From IMG/VR virus record IMGVR_UViG_3300037245_004196: a stretch of 64,000 bases of DNA; one strand, given 5' to 3'. Under the pieces are notes generated by a model that made no database searches, was not told the DNA's origin, and saw nothing but the letters and a program-made list of their open reading frames with translations. Both the position numbers and the translations under genes were made by a program. Position 1 is the stretch's first letter, and each line of letters begins with the position of its first letter. This document shows positions 3,001 to 63,136 of the stretch, piece by piece. This DNA comes from an uncultured virus (IMG/VR IMGVR_UViG_3300037245_004196). Taxonomy: Duplodnaviria; Heunggongvirae; Uroviricota; Caudoviricetes.

Positions 3001-5507
3001 GTTGTTCAATTTTACTTAAAATGAACTGCAAATGTTGTAAATCATCACATTTATAACAACTTACGAAATACCATCGCAATTTTCTTCGTTTGTCCCGAAG
3101 TTTTATATGTAATTTGATTTCCGGATGGTTTTTACATTTATAAATGATACGTGGTTTTTTACATCGTTTTTTGGTCATCTTTTATTTTCTCACAATCTTG
3201 AATTGATCTCCCTTTAAATCATCCGCATATACCTTATTTATTTCAAAATCATCACATGTAAAATATTCAGTGTGTACGTTTCCAAATTTATCATTATCAT
3301 TTGTGATTACCCCATATTTACTACAATCAAGGGTATGATCTAATATATCAGCAATTCCACAAAATTCACAATACTCACATTGATTTGTTCTCCGAAAATT
3401 AGGAGGGAGTGTTAGTTTGGGTTGTTCAATCCAATAATGGGTAGATTGAATGCACTCCAGACATCTGAGGAGAGGATGGGCATAGGACCGTTCTGTATAG
3501 AAAGAGCAATTAATCCGGATGTCGTAGTATTTACATTTTTTCTTTCTTCGGACAAATTCTCCGGGCATTCCTGGATATTTACTACAACCATATTCACCAC
3601 CCCATCGACAATTGGAACAGAGAAACCCTTGGTCCCAAAAATACTCTTCATAGAAACATGCATCTTCATACTCTTCCATGTTATTTATCTTCCAACAATA
3701 GATCTATTTGCAAATGTAATTCTTTCGTGGTATATTCTGCAAGAGGCATTTTAAGATTTAAATTAAATAAAAATTGTCTAAAATATCGCATCTCCTTCAG
3801 AATTGTAAGATAATCCCACACATCAATTTCAGTAGCCATATCTATTTCTCCATTTTTCTTTGATTCTCTTAATAAAAGATTTCCTTTCCTTCATTTTCAC
3901 CATTTTTCCATTTTCGTTTTTATAGACTTTTCCATTACAAAATAGATAGTTTATTTCATAATATCCAGAAAAATCCCAGATTGCAATTGGAGGAGGATAC
4001 ATCAAATCAAGATATTTTTTGATCCAACGTTGAAGTTGCTTAATCCTAAAAACATCTGTAAATACATGACTTCTATGATTGAAATTACCTCGTAATAAAC
4101 GTATTTGGAATAGATAGAAATTTAAATTCATTTTTTTCTTTCTTCTTTCTTCTCCCTCTTTGATTAATTTTTCCAATTTCTCTTGGTTGTCTGTAATCAA
4201 TTGTATAAGTGGAGTTAATGCTTCAGCAAGGACTCCAAATAATGGTGTAATGGCAGATACTAATGCGTCAACTGTTTTTTTCGCGACTTGTTCAATTAAT
4301 TCTTTCTGTTCTAATTTCTCATCATAACCTGGAAGCTTTTTCATTTCTGTTCTACATTTCTCACAGATTTTTCCGGTGTTTTTTGCGGGATCCGTCCCAC
4401 AGAATATACAATTTTCACTCATGTTTTATCGTCCTCTGTTTGTCCATATAATATCTTTAAAAAAGAATCTCGTGTAGTGCTTTGTTTTAATTTCTCAAAT
4501 TGTTCATAAGATAGATGTATATCTGGAAGATCTGTTTTTTTAGAAGTCAAATGAGCAATTACTTCTCCAGAAGGAGAAAAGACTTTTCCTTTACTTTCAC
4601 TCATCTTTAATCCAAATCCCTTTTAATCGTGGAAGAGGAACACAAACATCATGTGCTGTATGTCCGCTTGGTGCAACCATATCTTTTCCTTGTATCTTTT
4701 TTCCACAAAAAAAACACCAACCCACCCAATCCCGCTGGTCTTCACTCATGTATAATCATCCAAATATTTGTCAATGACCCTTTTTCGTAATATAATGATG
4801 CGGTACATGATGGATGTTTGCCAACGACTTACTTCTTTTGTTGCTTCGTTGCGGTGAAAGCCATTAGGAAGAGAATCTCTATAATCCTTTGCCAATTCCC
4901 GCTGAATAATGAAATCATTAATTTCGTCTTCATAGCTCATAAGAATTTCTCCAAAGTTCCCTGAACAATTGGTTTGTCTTTGCATTGAGGACAGGCGCGC
5001 TGTTCTTGAGGTTTTTTTGTTGCGGTATATTTCCATTTAGGTGGTGCGTAATAAAACCAATCGCCAGTACAGCGAGGGCAGTGATAAATTAATTTTTCTA
5101 TTTCCTTCTCAGAATAACCTCCATCAAGAGGATCTTCATTTTCCTTGTGGGTGATAAGGGTTTTGTATGCATTACTCATGCCGAGTCCTCCGCAGTTCTT
5201 TTGTGAACAGTTAACCAACACCAAAAACATAATCCGCATGGCGTTGTAATTCGCAACCCGCAACCTTTACAGAATTTAATCATGTTGATTTCTCCACACA
5301 TTCTTTACAGATCACTGCGGTAAATTCAACGCCTCGAAATTTAAAATTATATGGTAATCCATTAACCGTTCTAATTAATTGGCCACAATGAGGGCAATAA
5401 TCGTAGGATTTTAACGGTGGATCTATCCTGTTTCGAGGGATTCCTGTCGCATGGGAAATATCTTTAATTATCTGATCTTTGAGAGTTTGTTTTGGATGTG
5501 AGTTCAT
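1..5507 (-). other. Co-directional cluster of small hypothetical genes, many with CxxC zinc fingers
   Basis: Abutting minus-strand ORFs (1-264, 261-566, 523-753, 766-1509, 1787-2224, 2221-2574, 2567-2752, 2756-3178, 3182-3679, 3829-4422, 4419-4604, 4746-5036, 4937-5263, 5280-5507), several with ATGA overlaps or GGTGA RBS. Confidence 0.8.
4597..4749 (-). CDS. Small zinc-finger protein, 50 aa (not in ORF track)
   Basis: MSEDQRDWVGWCFFCGKKIQGKDMVAPSGHTAHDVC...; CxxC...HxxC; overlaps neighbours at both ends. Confidence 0.65.
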   Translation of the reverse strand: MSEDQRDWVGWCFFCGKKIQGKDMVAPSGHTAHDVCVPLPRLKGIWIKDE

Positions 5508-20681: not shown

Positions 20682-20727
20682 AAATATATTAATAGATTAC
20701 ATACATTTAAATATTATAACTTTCTTA

Positions 20728-20764: not shown

Positions 20765-20932
20765 TTAGTGAAAAAATATGGTTGAATATGAAATAGAAGA
20801 TTGTGAGATTGCAACAACGAAGAATAAAGTATATGAATTTGTTGCACTCGTTGCTCATGAATGTGGCCTTGACCTCAATATTTCGGAAAAAGAAATAAGT
20901 GAAATATGTGAGGATAATTGGCACGATTTTAA

Positions 20933-21527: not shown

Positions 21528-23480
21528 ATGGGTTCGGAATTAAGTGAATATTTAGAATCACTTCAAAACACTCCTGAAATTATAGAAAAGAAAACTAAAT
21601 TTGAAGAACTAAATGAACAATTAGTGTCTTCTCAAGATATTGAATTAGATAGTGAGAAACCCTCTCCTACATATTATGATTCTCAAATTGGATTAATAGA
21701 GATTCAAGGACAGATTTATTTTGATGGAGATATTGGGCCAGATGGAGAACTTGTTGAAGCTCCAATTTTAGGTATAAAAGAATGGGCCTATAAATATGAA
21801 GAATTTCCACAAAAAATCATGATTCAAAATCCGCGTAATCGGAAATATTATCAGAAAGAAATAATGCGACCGGCAGAAATAAATGATTTGGAGGTTCGGT
21901 TTCATGAAGAGATGATGGTTCATGATCGAATTTTATTACTTGCGTTTAGGGGTGCGCGTAAATCTACTGCGGGAATGCGTTTTGGTAAAAAGGCAGTCTT
22001 AGATAAAGGCGTAACTCTCGCGTATTTTTCATCCAGTGCAAGCTTAGTTACAGATTATTCAGAAGAAATTAAATCTCAATTTACTTATAATAAACGAATT
22101 CTGAAAGATTATGGTTATATAATTGACGAGAAAAAGACTAAAAGAAAAGATCAAATGTATTGGATGAAACAAAGAAGAAGTGCTGCGCGTGAACCAGGGC
22201 TTGCAGTGGGGTCATCTCCAGGATCTGGAAAAGGGAAAAGTCGTATTGGAGGTCATCCTAATATTTTAATTATTGATGATCCAATCGGAGAAGAACAAGA
22301 AGGTAGTGCGCTCTTACGAAAGAAAGTAGCTCGGTGGTTTTGGAAACAAGTATGGCCTATGCTTACCAGTGATACTCAACTAATCATTATTGGAACTATG
22401 AAACACCCTCAAGATCTTTATAATGAAATTATTGAAAAAGAGATTATGGAAGTCATAAAAATTCGTGCTATTGAAGAATGGCCTAATAATGGGCAAACTG
22501 AAGCATTTTATGAAGTAAAAGAAGGTAAGTGGTATTATACTCGATTTAAAAAACCAAGTGAAAGGAAGGCAAAAATAAGAGGGGTTGCTGGAATTGTTGG
22601 TGGGCGCGCAGGGTTTGATGGATATTTTGAATCTCATTGGAACGATCCTGGGCGCGTACAATATTTTCTTGATGATGATAGTTCACTTGGAATTGATAGA
22701 AATCGAATGGCCCTTCAAGAATTTCTTATTAAACGACATGAAGTTAGTCCGGTTAATTTCGAATATGAATATCAATTAAATGCAATTCCAGTTGAAGCAG
22801 GATACCTGGCCTGGGATAGAATGACTTCTTTTGATTATGAAGATGAGGGCATTCCATCCAAAGAAGAACTCCATTTCAACTGTCAAGCCTTTTTTGACCA
22901 ATCGTTTGGACAATCAAATCGCGCAGATTATTGTGCAATTGCGATAGTAAGTCGAGTAGAAGATGAAATGGAAATTAATCATTATTATCTTCTCGACCTT
23001 AAAGTATGGCGCGGAGGGGGAGTTGGAAAGAAAGAACAAATGATGGCTGCTTTAGCTGAGAAACATCCTTATGTTGAACATTGGGGTATTGAGGCAGACG
23101 TTATAAATTCAGCAGATGCAATCTATTTAAAACAACATTTACCGGAATTAGATATTATTCCAGTATATCAACGCGCTAAGAAAAATGATGAAGAAGAAGG
23201 GGTTGAAAGAACAAAGGTAGTTTATAAATTACCAGATGATATTAAATCAAATAAGAGAGCGAAAATTATCCGTATTTTAAATCAATTAGATGTTCCAATG
23301 TCTATGGGAAGAATCCATCTCTATAAAGGAATCGATCCGGAAGACATGGTTAAATTTAATGCTTGTCGGAATTTTCCAAAGTGTGAGAAATTTGATCCCC
23401 TTGATGCAAAAGGGTCTGCAATGGAAATGTGCGATAATAACCAATCATTTAAAGATTGTTTTTGGGACCACAATAATTAA
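21528..23480 (+). CDS. terL: Terminase large subunit
   Basis: Walker A AFRGARKST, Walker B ILIIDDP, IIIGT motif, EYQL, RNase H-like FFDQSFG...DYCAI, terminal D..DA. Confidence 0.92.
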   Translation: MGSELSEYLESLQNTPEIIEKKTKFEELNEQLVSSQDIELDSEKPSPTYYDSQIGLIEIQGQIYFDGDIGPDGELVEAPILGIKEWAYKYEEFPQKIMIQNPRNRKYYQKEIMRPAEINDLEVRFHEEMMVHDRILLLAFRGARKSTAGMRFGKKAVLDKGVTLAYFSSSASLVTDYSEEIKSQFTYNKRILKDYGYIIDEKKTKRKDQMYWMKQRRSAAREPGLAVGSSPGSGKGKSRIGGHPNILIIDDPIGEEQEGSALLRKKVARWFWKQVWPMLTSDTQLIIIGTMKHPQDLYNEIIEKEIMEVIKIRAIEEWPNNGQTEAFYEVKEGKWYYTRFKKPSERKAKIRGVAGIVGGRAGFDGYFESHWNDPGRVQYFLDDDSSLGIDRNRMALQEFLIKRHEVSPVNFEYEYQLNAIPVEAGYLAWDRMTSFDYEDEGIPSKEELHFNCQAFFDQSFGQSNRADYCAIAIVSRVEDEMEINHYYLLDLKVWRGGGVGKKEQMMAALAEKHPYVEHWGIEADVINSADAIYLKQHLPELDIIPVYQRAKKNDEEEGVERTKVVYKLPDDIKSNKRAKIIRILNQLDVPMSMGRIHLYKGIDPEDMVKFNACRNFPKCEKFDPLDAKGSAMEMCDNNQSFKDCFWDHNN

Positions 23481-25808: not shown

Positions 25809-27581
25809 ATGTCAAGTGCAGCTACAGAATTTTATAATTCATTACGCGCCCATACTCATTTCGAATCTCTTGGATCTTTTTCTGATAATGCACCATTTTA
25901 TAGTGCAACTCAATTTGGAAAAGGTGGTAAACCAGAGTTTTATTATCTTAACAATCCTACAATGTGGGAGTTATACCGAACCGCACGGAATACTGAAATA
26001 GGATTTAGATTGACTTATGGATTTGCGGGTCATGTTTGGAACAATGATTTTGGGCTTGTATTTCCTCGTGGAACCTTAAATGAAGAGGAGGTAAAAGAGA
26101 AGAATATCTTAATCAGGAAACATTTGAAAAAAATCAAATTTTATTCGGAGTTTGAAAAAGCAACCGGATTTGACTTTGAGCAAGGCGAATCATTAGCTTT
26201 GATATATAGAGAAGGGGATGGATTAGAAGCCACTACGAAAATGCTTCGAAAACCTAATTTTAAAAAGAAAGTCATTCGTGTAGAAGCAATAAATAGACAA
26301 GATTATACTATTCCATTACAAGGGGCATTCGGTGCGCCAAGTGAATATTTAATTCGATTTTATAAAATGGGTGAAGGAATGCCTCAATATACCGTTCATA
26401 GAGAAAGAGCGATAAGAATTAAAACCCAAGATATAAATTACAATCAATTCAAAGGACAAGCAATTTTACGATCTTGTTTTTCATCCATTCAGATTTTGCT
26501 TAATATTAACCAAGCAGCTTCTTATGCTGCTTCGCGCTGGGGTACAGGTAGACCAACTATTTTTACTAAAAACGTAAAGAAGAAAGATTTACCTGAGATG
26601 AAAGCATTAATTGGAAATCCTTTAAATGATTTCTGGTCAATTTTGCCGAGTGAATTTATTCAAAAAATTGAAATGTTGGGAATTGGACAAGGCGCGATGT
26701 TAGATTTAAACGGTCTTTCAGATCTTTTAATAAATCAAATAGTTGCAGCAAGTGAAATTCCACGACCAATTTTAATGGGAGAAGTCTCTGGAATTGTTGG
26801 AGCGGGAGAAGTAAATGAAAGAAGTTATTATGCCGCGCTTGATAAAAAGCATTCTCAATTAGAGAAGTTTATCTATGAATTTTTTGAAATCGATCCGGAA
26901 ATTAAAGAAATTTTAGGCGATCTTTATTATGAGATTGATTGGGGTTTACGACAAGTAATGACTAAGCTTGAGAAAGCAGAATATAATATGAAGATATACC
27001 AAAATGCTATCTCGGCCATGAATTATGCAACCTTAGATGAATGCAGAATTATCGCGGAATTACCAAAATTAGAAACCATAATGGATGATGAGGCAGCTAA
27101 ATATTTTTATGGTGAAGAAATGACTGCTAAAATGATTGGACAATTAATTCCAAGCTTAGGGCAATGGCGGCAACCAACTGTGCGTGAAGTGTTAGAAACG
27201 CCTGAAGAGCGTGAAGCAAAATTATTGGAAGAAAATGAAACAGAACAATTAGTTGAACTTAACCAAAAGAAGAATACTCCAAATGCTCAAGTACAAAAAC
27301 CTAAGAACGCATTACATGATCCAGGGAAAGAACTTAAAAGAAGGGAATTAAAAACTGCGCGTTCTCAAGCGATGGCAGATAAAGATAAAATACGGAGAAA
27401 AATTTTATCTGATGTTAAAAATATGACGATTAATGAAATGTATAATGAAATCGTTATGTTGAGAAAAGAGAGTTCTATGGAAAAAATAGCCGGAGAGATA
27501 AATGTTTCAAAAACAACATTGAATTCTTTATTCAACAATCTTAAAATCCTAAAAGAGAAATGGGTCCAAGGTGTCAAATAA
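25809..27581 (+). CDS. Portal protein (DUF1073-like) with C-terminal extension
   Basis: VHRERAIRI, GQAIL, IVAASEIPRPILMGE, YY, TLDECR motifs; position after TerL. Confidence 0.88.
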   Translation: MSSAATEFYNSLRAHTHFESLGSFSDNAPFYSATQFGKGGKPEFYYLNNPTMWELYRTARNTEIGFRLTYGFAGHVWNNDFGLVFPRGTLNEEEVKEKNILIRKHLKKIKFYSEFEKATGFDFEQGESLALIYREGDGLEATTKMLRKPNFKKKVIRVEAINRQDYTIPLQGAFGAPSEYLIRFYKMGEGMPQYTVHRERAIRIKTQDINYNQFKGQAILRSCFSSIQILLNINQAASYAASRWGTGRPTIFTKNVKKKDLPEMKALIGNPLNDFWSILPSEFIQKIEMLGIGQGAMLDLNGLSDLLINQIVAASEIPRPILMGEVSGIVGAGEVNERSYYAALDKKHSQLEKFIYEFFEIDPEIKEILGDLYYEIDWGLRQVMTKLEKAEYNMKIYQNAISAMNYATLDECRIIAELPKLETIMDDEAAKYFYGEEMTAKMIGQLIPSLGQWRQPTVREVLETPEEREAKLLEENETEQLVELNQKKNTPNAQVQKPKNALHDPGKELKRRELKTARSQAMADKDKIRRKILSDVKNMTINEMYNEIVMLRKESSMEKIAGEINVSKTTLNSLFNNLKILKEKWVQGVK

Positions 27582-30722: not shown

Positions 30723-30763
30723 AAATGCACCTTTCTTTTTTTAATTTTATTTGAGGGAAAAAA

Positions 30764-31579
30764 ATGACTGATCAAACTTATTTATTGAAACGTATAGGTA
30801 ATGTATTTGCCGGAGGAAAATCTTCCACAGTTGGTGGTGTTAAAGTGGGTGACGCTTTTGGTCCTGGGGATTGTATTAGAATTGTCGCGGGAGTTGCATA
30901 TATTACAGCTTCTGGCGATGCTTTATTAACGGGTGTTGCTGCCTCTAAAGCTGGTCATGCTGATGATGCAGATTTTGATGTCGGTGATATTATTGAATAT
31001 TATCCAATTGGACAAAAAACTAAAGTTCACATGAAATTAGCACCAATTGGTGTTCGTGGTCATCAAGAATGTGGACTTTCTGCAAAAACCGGAGCAACTG
31101 AAACTGGATTATCAACCACCACTCAATATTATTTTAAGATAAATATTGATGGAGGTGGGGTAACTGAATACGATATAACAACTGCAAGTGATTCCACTTA
31201 TGCTGCTGTTATTATTTTAATGAATGCAGAAATCACCGGTGCTGAATTCGCAATAGTTGGTGGTGATTTACGTTGTTCATCTATTACATATGGAGATGAT
31301 TCAGTAATTGCATTGACTGCTGGATCAACTGGAACTGATTTATTTGCAACATTAACTAATTTCTCTTCTTTTGATACCGCTGTAGATGGAGATGATTATG
31401 CTGTCAAAGAAGGCGAGATTGCTTCATTATCAGCAATAGACGGTCAAGTGAAATTATTTGAATATGCTAATTCAGCAGTTGCAACGGATACATTATTGCT
31501 TAAAGTCGGACGGTTTGTACAAGCAGATATAAGTCATGATACAGATATGCATATTGTTACAGTGAATTTGGGTGGTTAA
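30764..31579 (+). CDS. Second decoration protein with about 110-aa inserted domain
   Basis: N- and C-termini align to 29113-29589; central Thr/Gly-rich insertion. Confidence 0.8.
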   Translation: MTDQTYLLKRIGNVFAGGKSSTVGGVKVGDAFGPGDCIRIVAGVAYITASGDALLTGVAASKAGHADDADFDVGDIIEYYPIGQKTKVHMKLAPIGVRGHQECGLSAKTGATETGLSTTTQYYFKINIDGGGVTEYDITTASDSTYAAVIILMNAEITGAEFAIVGGDLRCSSITYGDDSVIALTAGSTGTDLFATLTNFSSFDTAVDGDDYAVKEGEIASLSAIDGQVKLFEYANSAVATDTLLLKVGRFVQADISHDTDMHIVTVNLGG

Positions 31580-35845: not shown

Positions 35846-37555
35846 ATGGATCTTTTTAAGAATACACTACGTAAGTCTACCAAGAATCTTAAAGAAGTCG
35901 CGAAATTTTTTAATGAAATTTATGGGATGAGAGGTGGATATAAAAGATTAAGAAATAAACAAACTGGTGAAGCAATAGGAGGTGCTTATTTACCAGGGTT
36001 AAAGGCTGGCAGAAAAAGAGGGGGAAAAAAAGCACGTATTAGTGAAACTGAATTTTTAGCATTAGATCGAGACAAAATGCTCAAAAGACTTTGGACTGGA
36101 TCACCAGTACAAGCTTTTTGGAAAGATTATACTGCCGGAGTTAAAAAATATTATATTGACCCGCTTAAAGCAACATTTAAAGTACCTCAAGTTATTGGAG
36201 GTAAAGCTCACCAACAAAAAAAAAGGTCTTATACTGGTTTTCTTCAAAAAGGAGTAAGTAAAGTACTTGATTATCAAAAGATCACATCTGGAATAGGAAG
36301 GGCTGGAAAAAAGACCTTTCGTAGAGCATCCTCAATAAGAGATAGGATGGAAAAATCAAAAGTATCTCTCTTTACTGGAAAAAATGCAGCATTTAAAGTT
36401 GGATATAAAGATGTATCAAGAAAGGAAATTGCACGTCGCGCCGAGAGAAGATTTCATTCAAAAAAAACCGATCCTTGGATGACTGATTCACAAGATAGGG
36501 CAGCACGAAGAAAACAGAGAAGATTTAAAACGGTCGCATCAGTTGGAAGAGGTGTTGGAACTGTTACGGGAAGAAAACCATTAAAAGATTTAAAAAAAAC
36601 AGCAAAAGCATTTGGAAAGATAGCAAAAGGGGGTGCTAAATTAGCGTTAATGGGGGGATTAGCTGGTTTATTAGCAACATTAGCAGATGCAATTAATCCT
36701 TTTAAACCATTAATTGCCGCGCTTTCTACGATTTTTACCATTTTTGGAACTATTTTAAGCCAAGCATTTATGCCCCTAATTCAAACGTTATTTGATGTAA
36801 TGTTAAGTCCACAAGCATTAGGGTTATTTGAAATGTTAGCGGTTTTAATGGCTGCAATAATTGAACCATTATTACCGATAGTTGAAGCTTTATTCCCTGC
36901 ATTATTTTCAATATTAGAAGTCGTCGTTGGGGTTTTAATGATCCTTGTACCTATCCTTGATTTATTCTTACTTCCATTACAAATGCTCATTCCATTATTT
37001 GGATTATTAGAGATCGTTATGACCCTTCTCTCTGTCCCATTACAAATATTAGGCAAAATTATGATGGTTCTTGTGGGTATTGTTATGGATTTTGCTAAAG
37101 TATTATGGGATTATTTTGGGGGTATTATTGATTTTCTTATAGGTTGGATTAATGGAATTAAACTTATTTTTACTGGTGGTTTTGATTCTGTCGCGGATGG
37201 ATTTAAATATTTTATTAATTTATTAATCGGTTTTGTAAATCAATCTTTAATTGGATCAATTAATAGTGTAATTGGTTTAATTAATAAAATACCCGGAGTT
37301 AATTTAGGTCGGATACCTTCTATTCCATTAATGGCAGAAGGAGGGATCATTACACGTCCAACACTTGTCATGGCTGGTGAACGTGGTCGAGAGGCAATTA
37401 TTCCTTTAGATCAATATAATGGTGGAGATGGAGGTAGATCGGAACAAATTGTAATTAATGTGTATATTGAAAATGTCGCGGACGATTCCATGATTGAAAA
37501 AATTACCAGAAGAATTACGGAAGAATTAGAACGACAAAAATATTGGACGGGATAA
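35846..37555 (+). CDS. Tape measure protein
   Basis: Amphipathic repeats; C-terminal MAEGGIITRPTLVMAGERGREAIIPL signature. Confidence 0.85.
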   Translation: MDLFKNTLRKSTKNLKEVAKFFNEIYGMRGGYKRLRNKQTGEAIGGAYLPGLKAGRKRGGKKARISETEFLALDRDKMLKRLWTGSPVQAFWKDYTAGVKKYYIDPLKATFKVPQVIGGKAHQQKKRSYTGFLQKGVSKVLDYQKITSGIGRAGKKTFRRASSIRDRMEKSKVSLFTGKNAAFKVGYKDVSRKEIARRAERRFHSKKTDPWMTDSQDRAARRKQRRFKTVASVGRGVGTVTGRKPLKDLKKTAKAFGKIAKGGAKLALMGGLAGLLATLADAINPFKPLIAALSTIFTIFGTILSQAFMPLIQTLFDVMLSPQALGLFEMLAVLMAAIIEPLLPIVEALFPALFSILEVVVGVLMILVPILDLFLLPLQMLIPLFGLLEIVMTLLSVPLQILGKIMMVLVGIVMDFAKVLWDYFGGIIDFLIGWINGIKLIFTGGFDSVADGFKYFINLLIGFVNQSLIGSINSVIGLINKIPGVNLGRIPSIPLMAEGGIITRPTLVMAGERGREAIIPLDQYNGGDGGRSEQIVINVYIENVADDSMIEKITRRITEELERQKYWTG

Positions 37556-46650: not shown

Positions 46651-47280
46651 ATGGTGAAAAAAATTGAATCGTTAGAGACAATAACTTATGGAAAAATGCT
46701 TAAAAAATGGAAAACGTCTGACGAGAGAAACCAGATAGTTGACAAGGTGTTGGAATTATTGACATCAATTGGGATGGAGGAATTACATGAATTTTTAGAT
46801 GAAGGAGGATACTTTGAAGCACCAGCAAGTACGGCCTTTCATGGATCAAAAATAGGGGGATTAGCTGAACATTGTTTAGAAGTTTATTCTTTATTTAATA
46901 ATCTTGTCAAATTTAAAAATTTAGACGTTCCAGATGAAACAATTATTAAATGTTCGTTATTGCATGATTTCTGTAAGTTAAAGTTGTATGAACCCAAAAT
47001 ATTTAAATCTGGGCCAAGGAAAGGAAAACTTGGATATGAAACAAACGACCAATTTCCAGCTGGACATGGAGCAAAATCAGTAATTCTTCTTCAACAAATA
47101 GGTGTTTCATTAAACCCGAAAGAAGTGTTAATGATTCAATGGCACATGATGCTTGACAATCGTGAATTCCAAAGATACCGAGACAAAATTAAAAAACTCT
47201 GTCCGGAAGCGATTCTGTTTGGTTGTTGTGATCATATTTCCAGTGTAATTGAGGAGATGAAAGTAGATGCAGACGTATAA
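46651..47280 (+). CDS. HD-domain phosphohydrolase
   Basis: APAS..FH...GGLAEH, LLHDFCK, GHG, WHM, D. Confidence 0.9.
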   Translation: MVKKIESLETITYGKMLKKWKTSDERNQIVDKVLELLTSIGMEELHEFLDEGGYFEAPASTAFHGSKIGGLAEHCLEVYSLFNNLVKFKNLDVPDETIIKCSLLHDFCKLKLYEPKIFKSGPRKGKLGYETNDQFPAGHGAKSVILLQQIGVSLNPKEVLMIQWHMMLDNREFQRYRDKIKKLCPEAILFGCCDHISSVIEEMKVDADV

Positions 47281-47471: not shown

Positions 47472-47687
47472 ATGGGAAAAATTAAATGTACTTGTAATCC
47501 AAAACGACGAGGATGCTCTCATTATTCCGCGGGAAAATGTAGATTAACTGGAAATTCTTCTAATTTTTATTTAGCACCTTGTATTATGAAATCAAATAGT
47601 TATCATTATGCTTGTTGTATAGTATATTTGAAATTGGGAAAAGAATGGGAAAGAAGGAGAAAAGAAGAACGTGCAAATCGTCATTGA
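47472..47687 (+). CDS. Cys-rich small protein, paralog of 9920-10102
   Basis: KCTCNPKRRGCSHYSAGKCRL...SYHYACC...KLG. Confidence 0.75.
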   Translation: MGKIKCTCNPKRRGCSHYSAGKCRLTGNSSNFYLAPCIMKSNSYHYACCIVYLKLGKEWERRRKEERANRH

Positions 47688-48375
47688 TGATCTGGAAACC
47701 AAGCTAATTGAAGCTTTCATAAGAAGAAAGATTGAACATCGCGTAGAACACCTTCATATCGGAGATGCTCATGTCAGCGCAGAATTACCCGTAGAGATAA
47801 AACGCATTTTTTATAATGATTCAGGGGTGTTTAATGACGTTAAAGCTTCTCTCGAAGATAGTAGGTATAGGAAACAATCAGAAGAGAGGAGAGATACCTT
47901 TAAACGAAATGCGATAATCGTTCAAATTGAAATTGATTGGAAGGATTTATATAATGAAGGATTTACTTACAATGAATTTATGGGATTTATTGTCTCTGTG
48001 CAATGGCGATACAATGGGATGTTTTATTTAACGGGTAATGTTGATGAAACAATTGACATCTTACTTTTACTTCATAAAAGAGAAATTGAAGCAGGAAGAG
48101 CGGAATCAATCAATAGACCCCCACGACCTAAATCATTACCGCAAAGACAAAGATATTTCGTCAAGGGATTTATCGGATGTGGTGACAAGATGACTGATGA
48201 TTTATTACTTTTTTATAAAACAATTATTAATATCATCGCGGCCCTATTAAACGGTCATATATTAACAAGAAAGGGGTTTGGTAAGTTATTTAAAGCAAAA
48301 AATATGGAATTATTAGAAACAGAATATAAAAAAGAGGAGAAAAAAGTATGGGGCGAATCAGTCGAAAACCAATGA
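47671..48375 (+). CDS. ERCC4/XPF-Mus81 family nuclease with HhH tail
   Basis: IVIDDLE, LHIGD, VEIKR, ASLEDSRYRKQ, GCG/GFG HhH motifs. Confidence 0.85.
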   Translation: MQIVIDDLETKLIEAFIRRKIEHRVEHLHIGDAHVSAELPVEIKRIFYNDSGVFNDVKASLEDSRYRKQSEERRDTFKRNAIIVQIEIDWKDLYNEGFTYNEFMGFIVSVQWRYNGMFYLTGNVDETIDILLLLHKREIEAGRAESINRPPRPKSLPQRQRYFVKGFIGCGDKMTDDLLLFYKTIINIIAALLNGHILTRKGFGKLFKAKNMELLETEYKKEEKKVWGESVENQ

Positions 48376-50011: not shown

Positions 50012-50689
50012 ATGAAAAAAAAAATGAGATATTATATTGCAGGACCAATTCAAGGGTTTCTGCGGAAAACATGGAATTTTAAGAATTATACAGAAAAACA
50101 AATTCTCTTTATGAATTGGGATGCCGCGTTAAAATGGGGCCATGAAATGGTCTTGAAATTACATCAAATGGGAATAGATAATGTGTTTAGTCCTCAAATT
50201 TATACTATTCAATTAGCGAAAGCGGCCTATGATAAAATTGGGAATGATCGAGAGTATTGGCTTAAACTGGATTTAGGTTTTATCGCGGATTTTATGAAAG
50301 GGGACGCACATATGGCATATGTTGAATGTTGTAAAAACTGCGACACCCCACATAAATTAGATGGTTATTATCAATCCGTTCCTAATTGTGAATGTAAAAC
50401 AACATCATGGATAGTCCAACGTCAAATCTATGATTCGGGCATCACGATCTTGATGAGTAAAATCGCTTATGAAGATCAATATCTTTGTTTACATTGTAAT
50501 ATTCCACTTACAGATATTAAAAAAGAGGAGGGGTATTGTGTTGCATGTACGTCAAATGAATTACTTAATATTCCACATAGAGAATGGCGTTCAAAAGGAT
50601 GTGAAATTGAATATAATTACGCCAAGAAGAATCATATCCAAGTGTTAGATTTAGATTCTTTTTTGGAAAGGAGGGAAGTTGAAGTATGA
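50012..50689 (+). CDS. Nucleoside 2-deoxyribosyltransferase-like (DUF1937/DUF4406) protein with zinc-finger inserts
   Basis: YYIAGP, FSPQ, WLKLD, SKGCEIEYNYAKK. Confidence 0.65.
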   Translation: MKKKMRYYIAGPIQGFLRKTWNFKNYTEKQILFMNWDAALKWGHEMVLKLHQMGIDNVFSPQIYTIQLAKAAYDKIGNDREYWLKLDLGFIADFMKGDAHMAYVECCKNCDTPHKLDGYYQSVPNCECKTTSWIVQRQIYDSGITILMSKIAYEDQYLCLHCNIPLTDIKKEEGYCVACTSNELLNIPHREWRSKGCEIEYNYAKKNHIQVLDLDSFLERREVEV

Positions 50690-55028: not shown

Positions 55029-55925
55029 ATGAAAATTGGATTAATCAATGTAGATAGTAAAATCCCGAATTTGGCCCTCATGAAAATATCTGGATATTTT
55101 AAAGCACGCAATCATCAAGTCGAATGGTTCAAACCTCTCTATGCTTCTTCTTTTGATAAGGTTTTTGCGTCTAAAATATTTACATTTACCCCTGATTATG
55201 GTTATTATCCCGTCAATGTGATTAAAGGTGGATCCGGTTATGATCTAAATAAAGTTCTTCATCGTGATGTTGAACACCAATTTCCAGATTATACCCTTTA
55301 TGATATGGATTATGCAATGGGCTATTTAACCAGAGGATGTTATAACAAATGCCCTTTTTGTATTGTGCCTCAAAAAGAAGGGAGACTTCATAAACATGCG
55401 GATCTGGATGAATTTTGGGATGAGCAAAATAAGATCATGTTATTGGATAATTCCTTAACTGATTTTATAGAGGCAGAATCGTTATTGACGCAAATAAAAG
55501 ATTTAGGTCTTAGATTAAATTTATCTCAAGGGTTTAATGTGCGAACTATTCAACCTAAAATAGCGAAAATTCTTTCAGAAATTAAATTATGGCCTACTAA
55601 ACAATGGCATATTGCTTGGGATAATATCAACGAAAAAGATAAAGTATTGAAAGGAATTAGGACATTGAATAATGCAGGGATTAAGAATTGGAAGATTATG
55701 TGTTATGTTTTAGTTGGATTTAATACCTCACAAAAACAAGACCTTCATAGGATAAATCTTTTAGAAAAATTAGGGGTAGACCCTTTCGTAATGACTTATG
55801 TTAAAAACAAGTACACGCGCACATTGTCTAAATGGTGTAATCGCAAACCAATCTTCAAGACTAATCCGGATTTTTTACAATACACTAAATTATTAAAAAA
55901 TTATGGAGTAAAAGATAATGGCTAA
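55029..55925 (+). CDS. Radical SAM protein
   Basis: TRGCYNKCPFC; N-terminal PNLALMKISGY; YVLVGF. Confidence 0.88.
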   Translation: MKIGLINVDSKIPNLALMKISGYFKARNHQVEWFKPLYASSFDKVFASKIFTFTPDYGYYPVNVIKGGSGYDLNKVLHRDVEHQFPDYTLYDMDYAMGYLTRGCYNKCPFCIVPQKEGRLHKHADLDEFWDEQNKIMLLDNSLTDFIEAESLLTQIKDLGLRLNLSQGFNVRTIQPKIAKILSEIKLWPTKQWHIAWDNINEKDKVLKGIRTLNNAGIKNWKIMCYVLVGFNTSQKQDLHRINLLEKLGVDPFVMTYVKNKYTRTLSKWCNRKPIFKTNPDFLQYTKLLKNYGVKDNG

Positions 55926-56054: not shown

Positions 56055-56720
56055 ATGGAGAGATATAGAATGAAAATCTTAAATCTGTTTGCAGGAATCG
56101 GAGGTAACCGGACCCTTTGGGGTGACCAACATGAAATCACCGCGGTAGAATATGATTCAGAAATTGCACAAATTTACCAGGAAAGATTTCCCGGAGACAC
56201 TATGATTATAGGTGATGCTTTAGAATATGTGCGTGACCATCTTGATGAATATGATTTGATATGGGCATCTCCCTCATGTGTCACCCATTCTCGCCTGAAT
56301 ATACCAACCTCTGCCCAACATGGGTGTTTACCTCCCATTCCTGATGACCGAACATTATATGGTTTAATTCGATGGTTAAAAAAATTCCATAGGGGAATGT
56401 GGGTTGTGGAAAATACTATGGATTACCTGGGTTTTTTGATTCAACCAACATGTAAATATGGAAGACATTATTTTTGGGCCAATTTTAATATTCCACAAAA
56501 AATATTTGCACCACTTCATGATATGGATCACAAATCATGGAGACAATTATGTGTCTTTCATCAAATAGATCCAGAGACCATTCCTTATATGAAATGGAAA
56601 AGAAATAATGATAAAAGAAGAACAGTTCTCCGGAATTGTGTTGATTATCATATCGGAAAATATATTCTGGATTGTGCCATTAAACCTAAACAAAAAACCA
56701 TGATAGAATTTTTTCAATAA
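56055..56720 (+). CDS. C5-cytosine DNA methyltransferase with C-terminal PIP box
   Basis: LNLFAGIGG, WASPSC, VVEN, RNCV; ends QKTMIEFF. Confidence 0.85.
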   Translation: MERYRMKILNLFAGIGGNRTLWGDQHEITAVEYDSEIAQIYQERFPGDTMIIGDALEYVRDHLDEYDLIWASPSCVTHSRLNIPTSAQHGCLPPIPDDRTLYGLIRWLKKFHRGMWVVENTMDYLGFLIQPTCKYGRHYFWANFNIPQKIFAPLHDMDHKSWRQLCVFHQIDPETIPYMKWKRNNDKRRTVLRNCVDYHIGKYILDCAIKPKQKTMIEFFQ

Positions 56721-56756
56721 AAAGAAAAAAAACGCGCCCAAGAGACCTGAGCGCGC
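56719..56756 (-). terminator. Hairpin plus T-run at convergent junction
   Basis: GCGCGCTCA/TGGGCGCGT followed by TTTTTTTCTTTT on the minus strand. Confidence 0.6.
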
Positions 56757-56812
56757 CAAAAAATGAAAAATTATAAATAAGCATAAAATATCCATATTAA
56801 AAAAAAGAAAGC

Positions 56813-56923
56813 CTAAAATGATGATACTTTGCGAGCTTTCGTAATTACTTTCCTGGGTTTTTTTGATGATTTTCGATTTTTAGAAGTCCGCGCTTTTTTT
56901 CCTGTTGATCCTTTTTTGGCCAT
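56813..56923 (-). CDS. 36-aa basic peptide resembling the histone H3 tail (not in ORF track)
   Basis: MAKKGSTGKKARTSKNRKSSKKPRKVITKARKVSSF; TAATG overlap with upstream gene. Confidence 0.6.
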   Translation of the reverse strand: MAKKGSTGKKARTSKNRKSSKKPRKVITKARKVSSF

Positions 56924-57788
56924 TATTTTTCTTCTCCAAATATTAAATTCATTGCATTTGCGATATTAAGATATGAATCCTTATACTTTAATCCACATAA
57001 AAAACCACACTTATTACAGTTTAACCGCCAATATTTTACGTCTTCATTCAAAGAGACATAAACAGTATGTCCGCATGTAGGACAAAAACTTGTTATAGTT
57101 AAGCAAAAATCCATTTCACTCATCTTTTTTCTTTTCTCCATTTGTATTTTTCTTTTTATATTTGAGACATTTAGCACAATCATTATAACCAAGTTCACAG
57201 AAATATACTGGTTCAAGATAGGTTCGTCCTATATTATCTTTAAGATGAATACAAGTTGTATCAATCATTCTTTTCACCATTCATTTCTTTTTTAAATTTT
57301 AAATCTAATTCCTTCACAACTAAAACTAATCTTCTCAGATTAAATTTAGCATTGAAACCATCATCAAATTCAGAATAACTATCTAAATCTTTCAGAATTT
57401 CTTCAATATTTTGCTGAATTGTTTTTGGATTACATTCTTTTTGATGTTTCTCTTTTAACTCTGAAAAAAGGGAATGTGAGAAAGCTTGAACCAAGGTTCG
57501 ACATTTATCACAAGTCCAATTATACGCGCTTGAATGTTTATTCCAATTCATGTTTTTCACCAATTTTCATTATATTCATTTCTTTAAAACTAATTTCCCC
57601 TTCTCTTATTGCTTCATGAATATCTGCTATATCTGAATAATTAAAATAAACTACAGCCTTTTTTTTAGCTTTATGTAAAGTTGTAGCTCTAATTATAACT
57701 AATGGCCCTTCTTCATATTCTGATAATAGAAAGTATTTAGTTTTTATTTTTCCCATTGTTTTCACCATTCTTTTTTATTAAAAAAAGA

Positions 57789-59000
57789 TTAGACATTGAC
57801 CATAATGAATTGTTGTTCAAGATAATAGATGTTGACCTTAAGATCATACACGTCATCAATTTGATTATCAATATCTTGATTCAATTTTCGCATTGCTTCA
57901 ATCGTTTTATTCGCTTTTTCCCAATCTCCCTTTGAAACCTGTTTTTGAGCGCGCTTTTTACTTTTCGTTAATTTATTTCTTTTACCCGTAATTAATTTGT
58001 TTCTTTCAATCAGAAGATCAGAAAAATCTTTCATTTCGATTTCAATTCCCTCAAGTTCAAGCTCTTTCTTTTCCATTTCTTCATTAAATTCAAGATCATT
58101 ACTGATTTCCCGATCTATTTTGGTTATTTCGTCTTCTTCTTTTGGACGGCCATAATCATCATAATCATCGTCTTCTTCCTCGTCTTCTTCAACCCTTGGA
58201 GCCAAGAAATAATTTAAATGGGATTGACCAAACAACTTAACTTCAATTTTTAAGGGAACATCAGTTCTTAGAGATAAATCAACACTCGCGGATTTATATG
58301 CTTTTGAATTAGGTGTCCCAAAAATTAAACCAGATTTAAGAACCTGATTTAGAAATGAGAGTGCAAAGACACCCTGAGAATCATTACATACATCAAAATT
58401 ATTCAATTGATCGCTTTTCATTACATTTTTATATTTTCCCATAGTTCCATTATTTGAGAAGATAACACTTTCGTCTTTTACTTCAATTTCTAATACGTCC
58501 GCGACAACGTCTGCGTCCCCCACTATTTCTTTAAGATCCACAAAATTCATATTAAGGGAATTATCAAATTCCATCTCTATTAGGCCATTCATTTCTAAAT
58601 CTTCTTCTTCTACTTCAATATGACCCAAACTAAAATTTCGCGATTTTTTCCGGCTTTCATTCTTAAAGATAATATTCAAATATTTATTTTGAGAAAAATC
58701 AAAAACCAAAGTATCATCTATTTTCCCGCGCTTTAAAAATTTGTTCAAATCACTTATGTTAATACCAACTTCAAGATCTTTCATATATCCGAAGGAATCC
58801 ATATCTTCCTTTGCAATAAAAAGATCTACTAAACAAATGTGGGAAAGATCTAAAGTAGTGAGTTTTAATCCTTCTTCTGTTAATTTCAAAATACATTCTT
58901 CTTTGATAGAACCTACTGCATTGAATAAGGCTTGAATTTGTTTCATCCTTCCACCAATTGCAATTATTCCATTTTCTGTAATCAAACTAAGTTTTTCCAT
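57789..59000 (-). CDS. pcna: PCNA sliding clamp with C-terminal acidic linker and coiled coil
   Basis: EGLKLTTLDLSHICLVDL, GINISDLNKFLKRG, DVPLKIE, YFLAPRVE. Confidence 0.93.
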   Translation of the reverse strand: MEKLSLITENGIIAIGGRMKQIQALFNAVGSIKEECILKLTEEGLKLTTLDLSHICLVDLFIAKEDMDSFGYMKDLEVGINISDLNKFLKRGKIDDTLVFDFSQNKYLNIIFKNESRKKSRNFSLGHIEVEEEDLEMNGLIEMEFDNSLNMNFVDLKEIVGDADVVADVLEIEVKDESVIFSNNGTMGKYKNVMKSDQLNNFDVCNDSQGVFALSFLNQVLKSGLIFGTPNSKAYKSASVDLSLRTDVPLKIEVKLFGQSHLNYFLAPRVEEDEEEDDDYDDYGRPKEEDEITKIDREISNDLEFNEEMEKKELELEGIEIEMKDFSDLLIERNKLITGKRNKLTKSKKRAQKQVSKGDWEKANKTIEAMRKLNQDIDNQIDDVYDLKVNIYYLEQQFIMVNV

Positions 59001-59076
59001 TTTTTTTATTCTCCAATTTTTTAAAAAAAAAAGTTAATTCTTATCTAAATAGAGAAAGTTATACTATTTAAAGTTA

Positions 59077-59113
59077 ATTATATTTGTATAATTTTTTGTT
59101 ATATTTGTATAAC
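59077..59113. promoter_or_regulatory. Pair of RTTATA-N4-TATAAY palindromes, 21-bp spacing, upstream of PCNA TATA box
   Basis: ATTATATTTGTATAAT (59077) and GTTATATTTGTATAAC (59098). Confidence 0.65.
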
Positions 59114-59115
59114 TT

Positions 59116-59595
59116 TTACCAATATTGAGCATAATTATATTTTTTCTGAAAGGCCACATCTAAATGAGGGTGATTTGTATAAAGCTCCCATTTGTGTCTT
59201 CGTAACCAATAAATCTTATATTTGATCATTATTGGAAGTAAACGATTAAGGTGTAAGGTCCTTAAGATATTTCGAAGGGAAGCTGTAGTTGATTTCGCAA
59301 TTTTACAAGCTTTCCATTGTGTTAAATTGCATGAGAAATATAATGCAAGGGCCACAATAGCTTTATTTCTCGCGGTTCTACATATTTTATAGAAACGTTT
59401 TTCAATATCTATAATAATTTTCCTGGTAAAAATCTCTTTCAGATTTAATTCAGGATTCTCTTTGAAAATATCAGTTAAAATTTGTTGGGAAATATCACAT
59501 GATAAGACCTTACAAATTTTCCCAGGATTTGTTTCATGATTTTGTTTGAGTTTAAGAATTCCTTCTCGTCTTCTCATTAATATTGATTTAGTCAT
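59116..59595 (-). CDS. TFB/TFIIB C-terminal cyclin-repeat-like protein
   Basis: RNKAIVALALYFSCNLTQWKACKIAKSTTASLRN resembles TFB AAAALY...TQ.EIA..A..T..TIRN. Confidence 0.6.
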   Translation of the reverse strand: MTKSILMRRREGILKLKQNHETNPGKICKVLSCDISQQILTDIFKENPELNLKEIFTRKIIIDIEKRFYKICRTARNKAIVALALYFSCNLTQWKACKIAKSTTASLRNILRTLHLNRLLPIMIKYKIYWLRRHKWELYTNHPHLDVAFQKKYNYAQYW

Positions 59596-59863
59596 CGTTT
59601 AATCACTCCTATCCCTTGATATTTATAACCAAATTCTAAAGGTATTACAATAATAGATTGATATTTATTTACAGCTTCTTTCATCCATTGTAGTTCTCCA
59701 CTACAAAAGCGAGGCCATCTTTCTTTTAATTCAAATGATGCAGAATAATAATCACCATAAGAATATTTTCGACCATTTTTATCTGTTCTTGTTCTTCGAA
59801 CTAATACATGGCCTTTAAAGATAATCGCAGAAATTCCGGACCATTTAGGCGTTTCTAAAACTA

Positions 59864-60217
59864 TCATATTTTAACCTCCTTTTCTTTTTTCTTTTCAAAA
59901 TTAATCAAATAACCCTCGTCATCAAACACTTGCTCATAATTTCCCAGGTCGATCCCGTCCGGAATTTTAGAAATATTTAATTCTAAAATTAATTGGAATA
60001 TTTTCTTTTTATTTTTCCTCGCAATTTTCTTTTTGTAAAAACCATTAATTAACTCAATAATTAATGAATTGCGCGTTTCTATTTGGTCATCTGTAAATAT
60101 ATTCATTTTCTGATTTTCGGTTAAAATACCAGAATCTATTAGATTTTTAGAGATAGAAAGATAATATTGTTTGATTTTTGTTCCATGTGTTAAGATTTTT
60201 TTTTCCATTTTATTCAC
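59864..60217 (-). CDS. AbrB-like swapped-hairpin protein
   Basis: KQYYLSISKNLIDSGILTENQ. Confidence 0.45.
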   Translation of the reverse strand: MNKMEKKILTHGTKIKQYYLSISKNLIDSGILTENQKMNIFTDDQIETRNSLIIELINGFYKKKIARKNKKKIFQLILELNISKIPDGIDLGNYEQVFDDEGYLINFEKKKEKEVKI

Positions 60218-60237
60218 TATTTTTAGTTTTAAAAAAA

Positions 60238-63136
60238 TTAAATATTGTGATGGTTCGCTAATTTTTCAAGGCCAAGCTCCCACATTTTTCTATGGGCCAT
60301 AAAAACCACTTCCTCTTTGAAGAGAAAAGTATCTCCTTTTTTAAGAGAAATCAACCTTTGAGGCATTGGTGATTGAGTAAAATCTAAAGTTGTGGTTATT
60401 TTTGACAATAGTTGGTACTCAATATTATGCGTTTTCCATTTTTCTAAGATTTTTTCATAATATTTTTCATCTGAAAGATCAAGGTTATTATGACAAAAAT
60501 TAAAAATTTCGCGTTCTACATACAATATTGCATCAAAATCATCAAATTTTAATGAAGCTTCACCGAAAGAAAAAATCTGAAACATTCTTTCTGAATTATT
60601 AGTAAATATTATTTCTATATTTGAATATTCTTTCATTATTTCAGTTTTTAAAAGATCATAATTAAAAAATTTGGCTTTATGACCAATAAAAGAAGGATCT
60701 TTAGAAATTTGGAGGGTGATTTTAGTCATTACTTTCCCCTCTTATCTCTTTAATGTATGGATGGGATTCAATTAAGGTTTTAATTTGACCCGCGATTATT
60801 TTTAAATCCCCCCATTCTTCCGCATGTAATCTACAAGCTAAACCATAAGCTTTCGAGATCGTATAAATATCTCTCGTTTTACTTGATTTTGATCGTAATT
60901 TAATAGTATTCCGCATTTCTCGTAAAATTTCTCCGAGAATCGTTCGCCTTTCATCTAATTTAATACCATTTTGAACGATTTGATTCACAATTAACGTTTT
61001 TTGCACCATATTAACCACACACCTTAATTTGTTTGATTTCATTTAGTGGAATATTTCCAGAAGTGATATCGTCTTCAAAATATAGTATTTCTTCTTCTTT
61101 CCAACAATCCACCACTTCCATTAGTGACCCATCAATGAATGTTATGAGAAAGACCATCAAAAAACACCTCCACGTTCATTTAATACCATATCATAAGTGA
61201 TAAGAGATTTATGAACCACAAAATAGTCTTCTTCTTCAATATTTTCCTCGTGATGCATTGGACTAATTGACTCTCCTTCTTCAAGTAAAAACTTAACCTG
61301 TTCTTCCACTTTTGCAATATATGAAAGAGAAGATCGTAATTGTACAGATTTTAAAGGAGAATCTATAACAAAAACAATCATCCCGATTCGTTCAAGAATG
61401 ACCATTAATACCCCCTCCCATAATCACAACATTGACAGTCTTCCCCACCACATCCATCACAAGGATTATATTTTTTTGCTTTTTTCTTAGTTGGTGATCC
61501 TTTATAACAAGGATAACATTCTTTTTTCCACGAACTTTTAGGAATCATTGTTTCGCAACTTGCACATTTCATTTTTACTGACATTTTTTTTCACCATTGA
61601 GTTTTTGTAAAAAAAGAATAATTTGCACGAGAGAACTTTCATAAATCTGAAAATTTACCGTTATTGGTGTTTGAGTTTTTTCCATTTTGATCACTTATTT
61701 GAATCAAAGGGACATTTCATCCAACAAGGTTCCCCTTTATCATTTTCAGATGGTTCGCAGTCACCCATAGGTTCATCTGATAAATCCATAGACCTTCTTG
61801 TTTGAAGACAAGCTAAATCATTATCGCGTTGAATTCCGTTAATATATGATGAGTAAGATTGTGGCATATTTTTTTTCACTTTTTCCGGTTTTGTTATTAA
61901 AAAAAATTAAACATATTGAACTTCAAAATTACCAAATTCGATTTTTTGTGAGTTTAAATAATTCATTACATTTTTTAATACCAAAAAGGCAAATTCGGGA
62001 TCGTTGATTGTCACTACATCGATTTCAACAATCATTTTACAATTACATGCTTTTCCTGTTTTTACAGCTTTAATTGTTTGATAAGAATAAATTCTATCAA
62101 ATTTACTCATTTCAGAAGAATTTTTCCGCAGTTGGATTAAGAAGGGTTGGATGTGGTTTATCATAGTTTTTCACTTGTTTTTTTCATTTTTTAGTTTTAA
62201 AAAATAATTCCGTACGTTCCTCTAAACTTAAATTTTGCATTCTTTTCTCCATTTTTCTAAAAAGAAACATATATTTTTTCTGATAAAATTCTATCAATTT
62301 ATTTAACCTAATTTGTATATTTAATTCCAATTCAGACAGACCTAAATTATCATACAAATATGAATATAAAGAAGGAAATCCTGTTTTAGTTAATTCCTCT
62401 ATATTTGTAGATCTCCGAATATTGCCCTCAGCAATATCTAACATTTTTGTCCACTTCATAATTAACACCTCCACTTCAAATAAGAAATCGGATAAGCATT
62501 TTGCACGATATTAGATTCACTGAGAAAAGCTTGAAGGGTGATTGATTTTTGCTGGTAATCTCCCGTTAATTCGTTCATATAATCTTCTACATCAAGTACG
62601 GACATATTGGATAAGCCTATTGGGATTGGATTAGTTAAAAGGGCTTTTTCTTCTTCCAATTGCTCAAGATTTGATTCATAAAGATCAACTAAATCTTTGA
62701 TGCTATTCATAATTTCGTTCGTTTCAGCACGAGCTCCTTGCTCATATAAATCTTCAATAGTGATTTCATATTGAGCAATTATTTCGTTGATTTCTCTAAG
62801 AGTTTTTACCATTTTTTTCACGGGGTTTTTTTGAGTTTTATTTTATTAAAAAAATTATAATTCATATTGGATAGATTGAGAGAAAGCTGCTAAAAAATCT
62901 CCATAATTCACAAATTTTAAAGTCTTGTTAGAATGGGCTAATTTGAAGAATGCTTTCACGCGCAAAAATGCTTGGCCCTTATTATCTAATTGTGTAGGTG
63001 ATAATTTTACAATCCCTTTATAATTAAGTTCCATACTATGAATTAAATTATTGAATTGTGCGATTCTGAGATATTCGATAGAATCGGAGTTAATTAAGCC
63101 ATGTTTTTTAGTGTTAAGAAAGTGGGATTGTGCCAT
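60238..63136 (-). other. Leftward cluster of hypothetical genes
   Basis: ORFs 60238-60729, 60722-61042, 61157-61405, 61691-61879, 61907-62164, 62184-62474, 62462-62821, 62855-63136; several have GTGAAAAAA upstream of the start. Confidence 0.7.

Follow-up and report, generated by a model that had tools for sequence, protein, structure and literature searches.

PCNA genes have been described in several viruses and mobile elements of Asgard archaea. As far as the accessible parts of the reports go, these include Skoll (10.1101/2021.07.29.454249), Opia and Nidhogg (PMC11529989), and the elements 10H_0 and 7H_42 (10.1101/2021.07.29.453957); PCNA has also been found in halovirus genomes (PMC3950731) and in viral genomes that lack a polymerase (PMC3201878). 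Asgard PCNA itself is treated as mostly single-copy in the available portion of a further report (PMC12680538). In the portions of text available, the Asgard viral PCNAs are described without a C-terminal extension or a host-matched face; this comparison is by description only, and one of them could carry an arm of the kind reported here. In the phage collection there was no match to any of these PCNAs.

A plant nuclear paralog, carrot PCNA2, occurs in a long form that is described, in the part of the report available, as having a C-terminal tail of >100 amino acids (PMC2814116). Several giant-virus PCNAs are 400-500 amino acids long (medusavirus 431, Terrestrivirus 402, Homavirus 449). In the eukaryotic 9-1-1 clamp, Rad9 has a C-terminal tail of ~120 amino acids through which partners are recruited outside the PIP pocket; this tail is disordered and phosphorylated, and is present on one subunit of the heterotrimer.

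Here we describe P0001, a PCNA with a predicted helical arm, encoded in 64,000 nucleotides of DNA from an uncultured virus (IMG/VR IMGVR_UViG_3300037245_004196; this whole stretch is referred to as the window). Going by the available text, P0001 resembles the Asgard viral and element PCNAs listed above in being a host-related PCNA in what is probably an Asgard virus or mobile element, and the window has 2-deoxyribosyltransferase, methyltransferases and nucleases as gene types in common with 10H_0. Cellular Promethearchaeaceae PCNAs (those of Ca. Lokiarchaeum ossiferum and Promethearchaeum syntrophicum, and the sequences P0004-6) share the fold and the acidic C-terminal tail of P0001, but are 261-266 amino acids long and have neither the arm nor the basic insert described below. 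The likeness to carrot PCNA2 is one of tail length, and the long giant-virus PCNAs also join a viral PCNA fold to extra sequence, but are 16-18% identical or less. Unlike the Rad9 tail, that of P0001 is predicted to fold as a hairpin and is presumably borne by every subunit; no homology is implied. Although Asgard viral PCNAs are already known, the architecture of a PCNA with a helical arm was not found in the literature searched: the main texts of mostly non-subscription articles held no description of a hairpin-fused archaeal viral PCNA or of a viral clamp face matched to a host lineage.

The PCNA core and its C-terminal extension

The P0001 gene (57789..59000, minus strand) is a single open frame of 403 amino acids that has a full-length homolog, P0002, and is preceded by a ribosome-binding-like motif, GGAGA, that can be read in the sequence at 59010..59014 (minus strand), 9 nt 5' of the ATG. 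Positions 56500-60500 are reproduced without differences or gaps in one assembled contig from what is probably the source run, although this contig is not independent of the window. This DNA run was the single sequencing run listed for the sequence, with no RNA run among the holders. A sequence-only reading of the window had described a complete PCNA fold up to the motif YFLAPRVE (amino acids 264-271), and this was borne out by Pfam, NCBIfam, PDB and AlphaFold2. In particular, both PCNA domains are present in the core (amino acids 12-271; 58188..58967, minus strand), with Pfam matches to PCNA_N at amino acids 25-131 (E 3.8e-12) and to PCNA_C at amino acids 140-268 (E 3.4e-8), a score slightly above the cut-off for TIGR00590 (NCBIfam), and matches to PDB PCNAs down to E 1e-22. 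The two-domain fold with its interdomain connecting loop (IDCL) was also evident from AlphaFold2, where pLDDT in the core was mostly >90 with a 47-row alignment, and from Foldseek matches to viral PCNAs. The basic inner helices are retained, with 11 Lys/Arg residues in P0001 compared to 10-11 in three host-type PCNAs. A segment at amino acids 224-237 (58290..58331, minus strand) holds a basic insert of ~10 residues (amino acids 228-237) that, among 24 aligned rows, is common to P0001, P0002 and P0003 only. Judged from its sequence, P0001 is quite probably a functional clamp.

Following YFLAPRVE are 132 further residues. The first ~12 of these resemble the acidic tail of cellular Promethearchaeaceae PCNAs, which extends 12-16 residues after LAP in the five records that name a Promethearchaeaceae organism, and thus the newly added part of P0001 amounts to ~120 amino acids. 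It was proposed in the sequence-only reading that the PCNA fold continues through an acidic linker into a long coiled coil. The linker (amino acids 271-290; 58131..58190, minus strand) is indeed acidic and predicted by AlphaFold2 to be disordered, with low pLDDT (block means of 49 and 58), and helices are predicted to follow it; the single long coil, however, gives way to one predicted antiparallel two-helix hairpin (amino acids 291-402). Helix 1 of this arm (amino acids 291-356; 57933..58130, minus strand) is acidic in its first half and has a basic patch near the hairpin tip, and helix 2 (amino acids 360-402; 57795..57923, minus strand) contains the stretch VYDLKVNI, which is identical in P0002. 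AlphaFold2 gave pLDDT values of 91-97 for amino acids 301-400 in the full protein (pTM 0.65 for the full-length model) and the same hairpin, with a mean pLDDT of 94.2, when the tail was folded alone. Because only two rows of the alignment cover the tail, the packing of the arm is to be read as a prediction. Acidic residues outnumber basic ones in the P0001 arm (23 K/R, 28 D/E), the patch at the hairpin tip (tail blocks 51-70) has net charges of +4 and +5 in P0001 and of +2 and +4 in P0002, and no PIP box was found within the arm.

P0002 is a protein of 398 amino acids from another record (Logan, a 2.8-kb contig) that is 48% identical to P0001 over 99% of the length: 127 of 251 residues are identical in the core, 15 of 20 in the linker, and 47 of 106 (44%) in the arm. 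The heptad a positions are hydrophobic in both proteins (6/6 in helix 1 and 6/6 in helix 2), and conserved arm residues away from the a/d seam include L329, L336, Y385 and V389. Since P0002 comes from another record and keeps the arm, the extension is not an assembly error. Moreover, the two refutations foreseen in the sequence-only reading, a stop codon after the acidic tail and an extension that is normal in host PCNAs, were not borne out at the level of assembled sequences: P0002 is divergent and has the same open extension, and the host-type PCNAs that we examined do not have it. The PCNA-arm fusion is almost certainly genuine. P0003 (270 amino acids, from a 53-kb contig) has the basic insert and ends after the acidic tail without an arm; given this armless sister, the arm is an add-on. 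Tyr283 (TAT, 58152-58154) lies at the position where host-type PCNAs end and is one base from a stop codon, which is a weak sign of stop loss because many codons lie one step from a stop; the arm probably originated when the stop codon following a host-like acidic tail was lost. The GC and GC3 contents of the IDCL patch and of the arm were unremarkable.

P0001 and P0002 are the two arm carriers that we found. A profile of the two arms recovered P0002 alone from 1.84 billion representatives, with no plant match, and there was no free-standing arm among proteins of 65-209 amino acids (seven short candidates). None of 400 Asgard genomes had the arm in a search run without a positive control, an Atlas feature search gave no match to it, and Foldseek comparison of the arm model with PDB and viral libraries returned nothing at E 0.001, with no named PCNA among the best 50 rows from the viral structure library. 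PCNA itself was matched in 369 of the 400 Asgard genomes, with open frames of 215-318 amino acids among the matches listed, and the visible tails after LAP in 53 extracted PCNA frames (four of them with a variant motif and one mis-measured) were 5-34 residues long. The premise that archaeal and eukaryotic PCNAs normally end soon after LAP has exceptions, namely carrot PCNA2 and several giant-virus PCNAs. Loci related to the P0001-3 clade were found in none of IMG/VR, JGI metagenomes, GTDB (by alignment) or the phage collection.

Phylogenetic position and the PIP face

To place the PCNA body, we used a tree of 36 rows out of 70 gathered, with tails trimmed, under LG+C20; a 47-row quick tree agreed with it. 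P0001, P0002 and P0003 formed a clade (100/100) that joined three divergent PCNAs (P0007, P0009 and P0024; 95/95), and grouped beside cellular Promethearchaeaceae-type PCNAs (95/90, a 17-row set). The three sequences are long-branched and sister to the cellular Promethearchaeaceae rows rather than nested among them. Thus, the Asgard affinity raised in the sequence-only reading was upheld, with P0001 placed beside the clamps of Promethearchaeaceae (Lokiarchaeia) in a sister position. P0001 is 33-38% identical to PCNAs from named Promethearchaeaceae and 43-46% identical to P0004-6, which are themselves 61-65% identical to the PCNA of Ca. Lokiarchaeum ossiferum and were taken as cellular because of where they fall in the tree, a contig of 528 kb and a cluster of six members. 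The body of P0001 belongs to a small virus-linked clade, in which a viral gene setting was observed for P0001.

The sequence evidence indicates that the host of the virus is probably an Asgard archaeon of Promethearchaeaceae type (Lokiarchaeia). Two contigs of one Asgard genome (G143) encode homologs with 60-68% protein identity to ORFs of the window; these adjoin genes that look ribosomal by eye, and the PCNA of this genome is of Promethearchaeum type. A contig of another genome (G173) contains homologs of the window portal and terminase. Searching 40 of the 64 kb against 154 genomes gave no clear match to CRISPR spacers. The PIP face discussed below would point to a lineage of the Promethearchaeaceae clade that has no close match in the 154 genomes of the order (best 63%).

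The IDCL region of P0001 (amino acids 123-148; 58557..58634, minus strand) is identical at 22 of 26 positions to both P0004 and P0006, whereas 9-11 of 26 are identical to its sisters and 8-12 of 26 to four other PCNAs of the Promethearchaeaceae clade. We then considered a PIP face of 42 columns (amino acids 50-57, 126-145, 245-249 and 264-272 of P0001), taken from the contacts of human PCNA with p21 and mapped onto P0001 through an alignment; note that these columns were picked after the IDCL match had been seen. On this face P0001 is identical to P0006 at 38/42 positions and to P0004 at 37/42, while off the face the identity is 36-37%; overall, the face is 83-90% identical to those of P0004-6 and the PIP-binding surface is intact. 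Face identity to eight other PCNAs of the Promethearchaeaceae clade is 21-27/42, and to the sisters 20-21/42, with 46-51% off the face. Of the lineage-diagnostic residues, P0001 has 9 of the 11 on the face and 6 of the 33 elsewhere (Fisher p 2.8e-4), and the contrasts between face and off-face identity of P0001 with P0004-6 were the top three outliers in 276 pairs. A tree made from the face alone put P0001 inside P0004-6 (93/98) and rejected the P0001-3 clade (AU p 2e-5), whereas a tree of the 211 off-face columns recovered that clade (100/99). Thus, at the level of sequence, four PIP-face segments match one cellular-type lineage almost exactly, a feature that the sequence-only reading had missed.

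With the IDCL left out, P0001 retains a weak face signal (p 0.024-0.029). Of the two full-face comparisons made with P0003 as a control, one likewise reached p 0.025, and when informative sites were scanned in sliding fashion, p was 0.02-0.07. The match may alternatively have come from a single recombination of the IDCL together with mild convergence elsewhere. The face of P0002 leans to Promethearchaeum (29-30/42), with low tree support (62/63), and outside the IDCL it shares 21/22 positions with P. syntrophicum; for P0003 there was no matching host among those sampled. We consider it reasonably likely from these patterns that the face of the viral clamp tracks the host lineage. In fungi, IDCL structure is reported to set cross-species PCNA compatibility, according to the parts of the studies available (PMC8319368; PMC10506467).

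The face of P0007 is nearest to Ca. Lokiarchaeum ossiferum (32/42, with 38% off the face) and could be a third instance of host matching. In another Lokiarchaeia clade, second-copy PCNAs have kept the face better than the remainder, with no match specific to the PCNA of the same genome in the two genomes with both copies. At one locus (L046, G252:C431), two PCNA-like ORFs lie within 8 kb, and one of them, very diverged, shows about 20% identity off the face and 50% on it, with a Cys-rich N-terminal stretch.

Viral gene context and candidate clamp clients

Genes for a terminase large subunit (21528..23480, plus strand; PHROG 38, E 7.8e-32), a portal protein (25809..27581, plus strand; PHROG 146, E 4.8e-12) and a tail tape measure protein (35846..37555, plus strand; PHROG 34082, E 2.1e-19) assign the window to a tailed virus (Caudoviricetes), in keeping with the viral origin assumed for the PCNA from the outset. 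In the search for an HK97-fold capsid, the candidate at 29595-30722 had no family match. A 280-nt repeat (88%; 29109-29388 and 30760-31039) marks two paralogous genes that flank this 375-aa ORF; the ORF is a likely candidate for the capsid gene, and the flanking paralogs are candidate decoration proteins.

The absence of a recognisable polymerase or clamp loader from the window, as stated in the sequence-only reading, stands for the sets of 49, 48 and 20 ORFs scanned, with large ORFs still unannotated; the longest contig with P0001 is 66,782 bases, and at least 2.8 kb of the genome thus lie outside the window. Recognised in their place were only an exonuclease that stands alone and a nuclease of XPF/Hef type, the domain of the latter (47671..48375, plus strand; NCBIfam E 1.3e-16) having no C-terminal PIP box that we could see. 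Two ORFs of 579 and 567 amino acids received no helicase or polymerase assignment, the former also having no family match. By eye, the 579-aa ORF (12458-14197, plus strand) has a Walker-A-like motif; it is a possible replication helicase and a candidate partner of the arm.

Two ORFs end in motifs that make them candidate clients of the clamp. A C5 DNA methyltransferase (56055..56720, plus strand) ends in the canonical PIP box QKTMIEFF (56691-56714), and a small zinc-ribbon-like protein (4937..5263, minus strand) ends in the PIP-like motif QGTLEKFL. A strict C-terminal PIP motif occurs in 2 of 120 non-overlapping ORFs when 0.14 are expected (P 0.0095), and a looser pattern in 4 of 120 (0.47 expected). 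A homolog of the methyltransferase in an Asgard genome (G275) has a PIP-like motif at its end too; the motif was found at the end of none of five homologs in IMG/VR. These PIP-box proteins were likewise missing from the earlier account. Separately, an HNH nuclease (10103-10807, minus strand) has a loose PIP-like C-terminal motif.

Several further features were observed in or around the window. The ORF directly upstream of the PCNA gene (59116-59595, minus strand) has an HTH-like C-terminal half that looks TFB-repeat-like by eye; a TFB identity found no support, with no match in five Asgard genomes and Atlas HTH leads only (0.89). Upstream of the PCNA gene lies an AT-rich stretch (59076-59114) that occurs once more on the source contig and is matched at 79%, in inverted orientation, by 20727-20774; it may possibly represent a shared promoter element. 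A sigma-70 promoter scan was at chance level. At 17121-17192 (plus strand), ARAGORN predicted a tRNA that is atypical and has no defined anticodon. A MazG-like protein (6093-6605, by eye), an HD hydrolase (46651-47280) and a 2-deoxyribosyltransferase-like protein (50012-50689) form a set that resembles that of 10H_0. A radical SAM homolog of window ORF 55029-55925, found at another locus (L108:542-2674), has an in-frame insert of ~417 amino acids that is possibly an intein.

Possible roles of the clamp and its arm

We tentatively favor, at a little below an even chance, a reading of the sequence in which P0001 is a working viral clamp with a host-matched face for host enzymes and an arm that serves as an additional docking site. 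A virus of a Promethearchaeaceae-type (Lokiarchaeia) host would produce its own working PCNA. Because the virus has no recognisable polymerase or loader, we infer that host RFC would load the viral ring and that host polymerase, Fen1 and ligase would use it. If host enzymes load and use the ring, then selection, or repeated patchy gene conversion, would keep the PIP face host-like. The viral methyltransferase could ride the same ring, and the arm would provide a second, PIP-independent docking site for a virus-specific or host partner, steering the viral ring rather than the host ring to viral DNA. The suggestion that the extension tethers partners thus remains the best reading of the arm, at the level of sequence, and the conserved residues away from the hairpin seam are in its favor.

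Those same off-seam hydrophobic residues would also fit self-association, in which hairpins of different rings pair to link clamps at two forks or strands, or build a viral replication hub. With helices of 66 and 43 residues predicted, helix 1 has no partner for its first ~22 residues in the monomer model, and a pTM of 0.65 is what would be expected for a free arm on a rigid core; however, since the C-termini lie on the client face of the ring, three arms bundled above a single ring would leave little room for the DNA path and for the PIP sites that are apparently under selection, and we regard self-association as unlikely. Somewhat less likely still is that P0001 is a decoy or poison whose face absorbs host PIP proteins, or whose subunits enter host rings, as the sequence-only reading had suggested with its mixed rings, where the arm would block loading or sliding and so stop host replication. 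A decoy would need a face nearly identical to that of the host, and the observed face fits this reading equally well; E158, D162, R91 and R121, which we take to be interface ion pairs, are retained as in host PCNAs, and no viral polymerase was recognised in the scanned ORFs. On the other hand, a virus without a recognisable polymerase relies on the host replisome, PIP boxes are present in viral proteins, and the inner helices have kept their basic residues; in addition, the strand formed by amino acids 189-195, presumably part of the subunit interface, is virus-specific and unlike host types, which weakly disfavors mixed rings. Herpesvirus processivity factors grip DNA or load without a loader, and the basic patch at the hairpin tip, the basic insert of the clade and the lack of a recognised loader would accord with an arm and insert that act together in this way; the arm of P0001 is nevertheless net acidic and lies behind an acidic linker, and P0003 has the insert without the arm, making DNA grip or loader-free loading improbable.

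An antiparallel hairpin of similar size is found as the alpha1-alpha2 hairpin of ESCRT-III and PspA and in the regulatory coiled coil of KIF21A; the KIF21A match (E 1.3e-4) was taken as a generic coiled coil. A mimic of the ESCRT-III/PspA core hairpin could tie the clamp to, or poison, host membrane-remodelling filaments. ESCRT-III, Vipp1 and PspA chains accounted for 10 of the best 50 structural rows (Z 10.4-11.8; for Snf7 5fd9, Z 11.8, rmsd 0.9, 86 aligned), a PspA/IM30 cluster ranked first among the Atlas structure rows, although under the naming bar, and Snf7-family genes were present in 26 of 26 genomes drawn from the host order. Yet Z values below 13 are uninformative for helical hairpins, with designed proteins, prefoldin, moesin and SMC tying; against Asgard ESCRT-III profiles of 15 and 12 rows, 125-171 of 200 shuffles scored as high as the arm (hhalign probability 2% and 0.7%); Snf7 and PspA were absent from Pfam matches at E up to 10; and the protein stops after helix 2, without further helices corresponding to what we take to be alpha3-5. 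Because the arm is structurally a generic hairpin and the profiles do not support ESCRT-III ancestry, we did not class it as ESCRT-III; such mimicry is very improbable. About equally so is that the extension reflects neutral read-through or two genes wrongly joined in assembly. Although Tyr283 stands one base from a stop, P0002 keeps the frame open with the arm's heptads intact and no free-standing arm protein was found, and this explanation is largely refuted. A three-part adaptor, with a viral body, a face copied from the infected host lineage and an ESCRT-III-mimicking arm, is likewise very doubtful; if true, it would tie viral DNA replication to the Asgard ESCRT membrane machinery, or jam it. 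That the face alone tracks the host, which we hold to be reasonably likely, is far likelier than any ESCRT link.

Returning to the favored reading of a working clamp with an added docking site, folded extra domains are rare on sliding clamps, and P0001 bears on the question of how archaeal viruses without a polymerase steer host replication enzymes to viral DNA. It also makes a compact system for tests, with an arm that can be detached from the clamp, a sister that naturally lacks it, and named candidate clients. If upheld, the host-matched face would represent interface-level host tracking by a viral clamp, consistent with the yeast work on IDCL compatibility, and the hosts of uncultured Asgard viruses might then be predictable from about 40 residues. 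Read from its sequence, P0001 suggests a clamp tuned to borrow the replication enzymes of its host.
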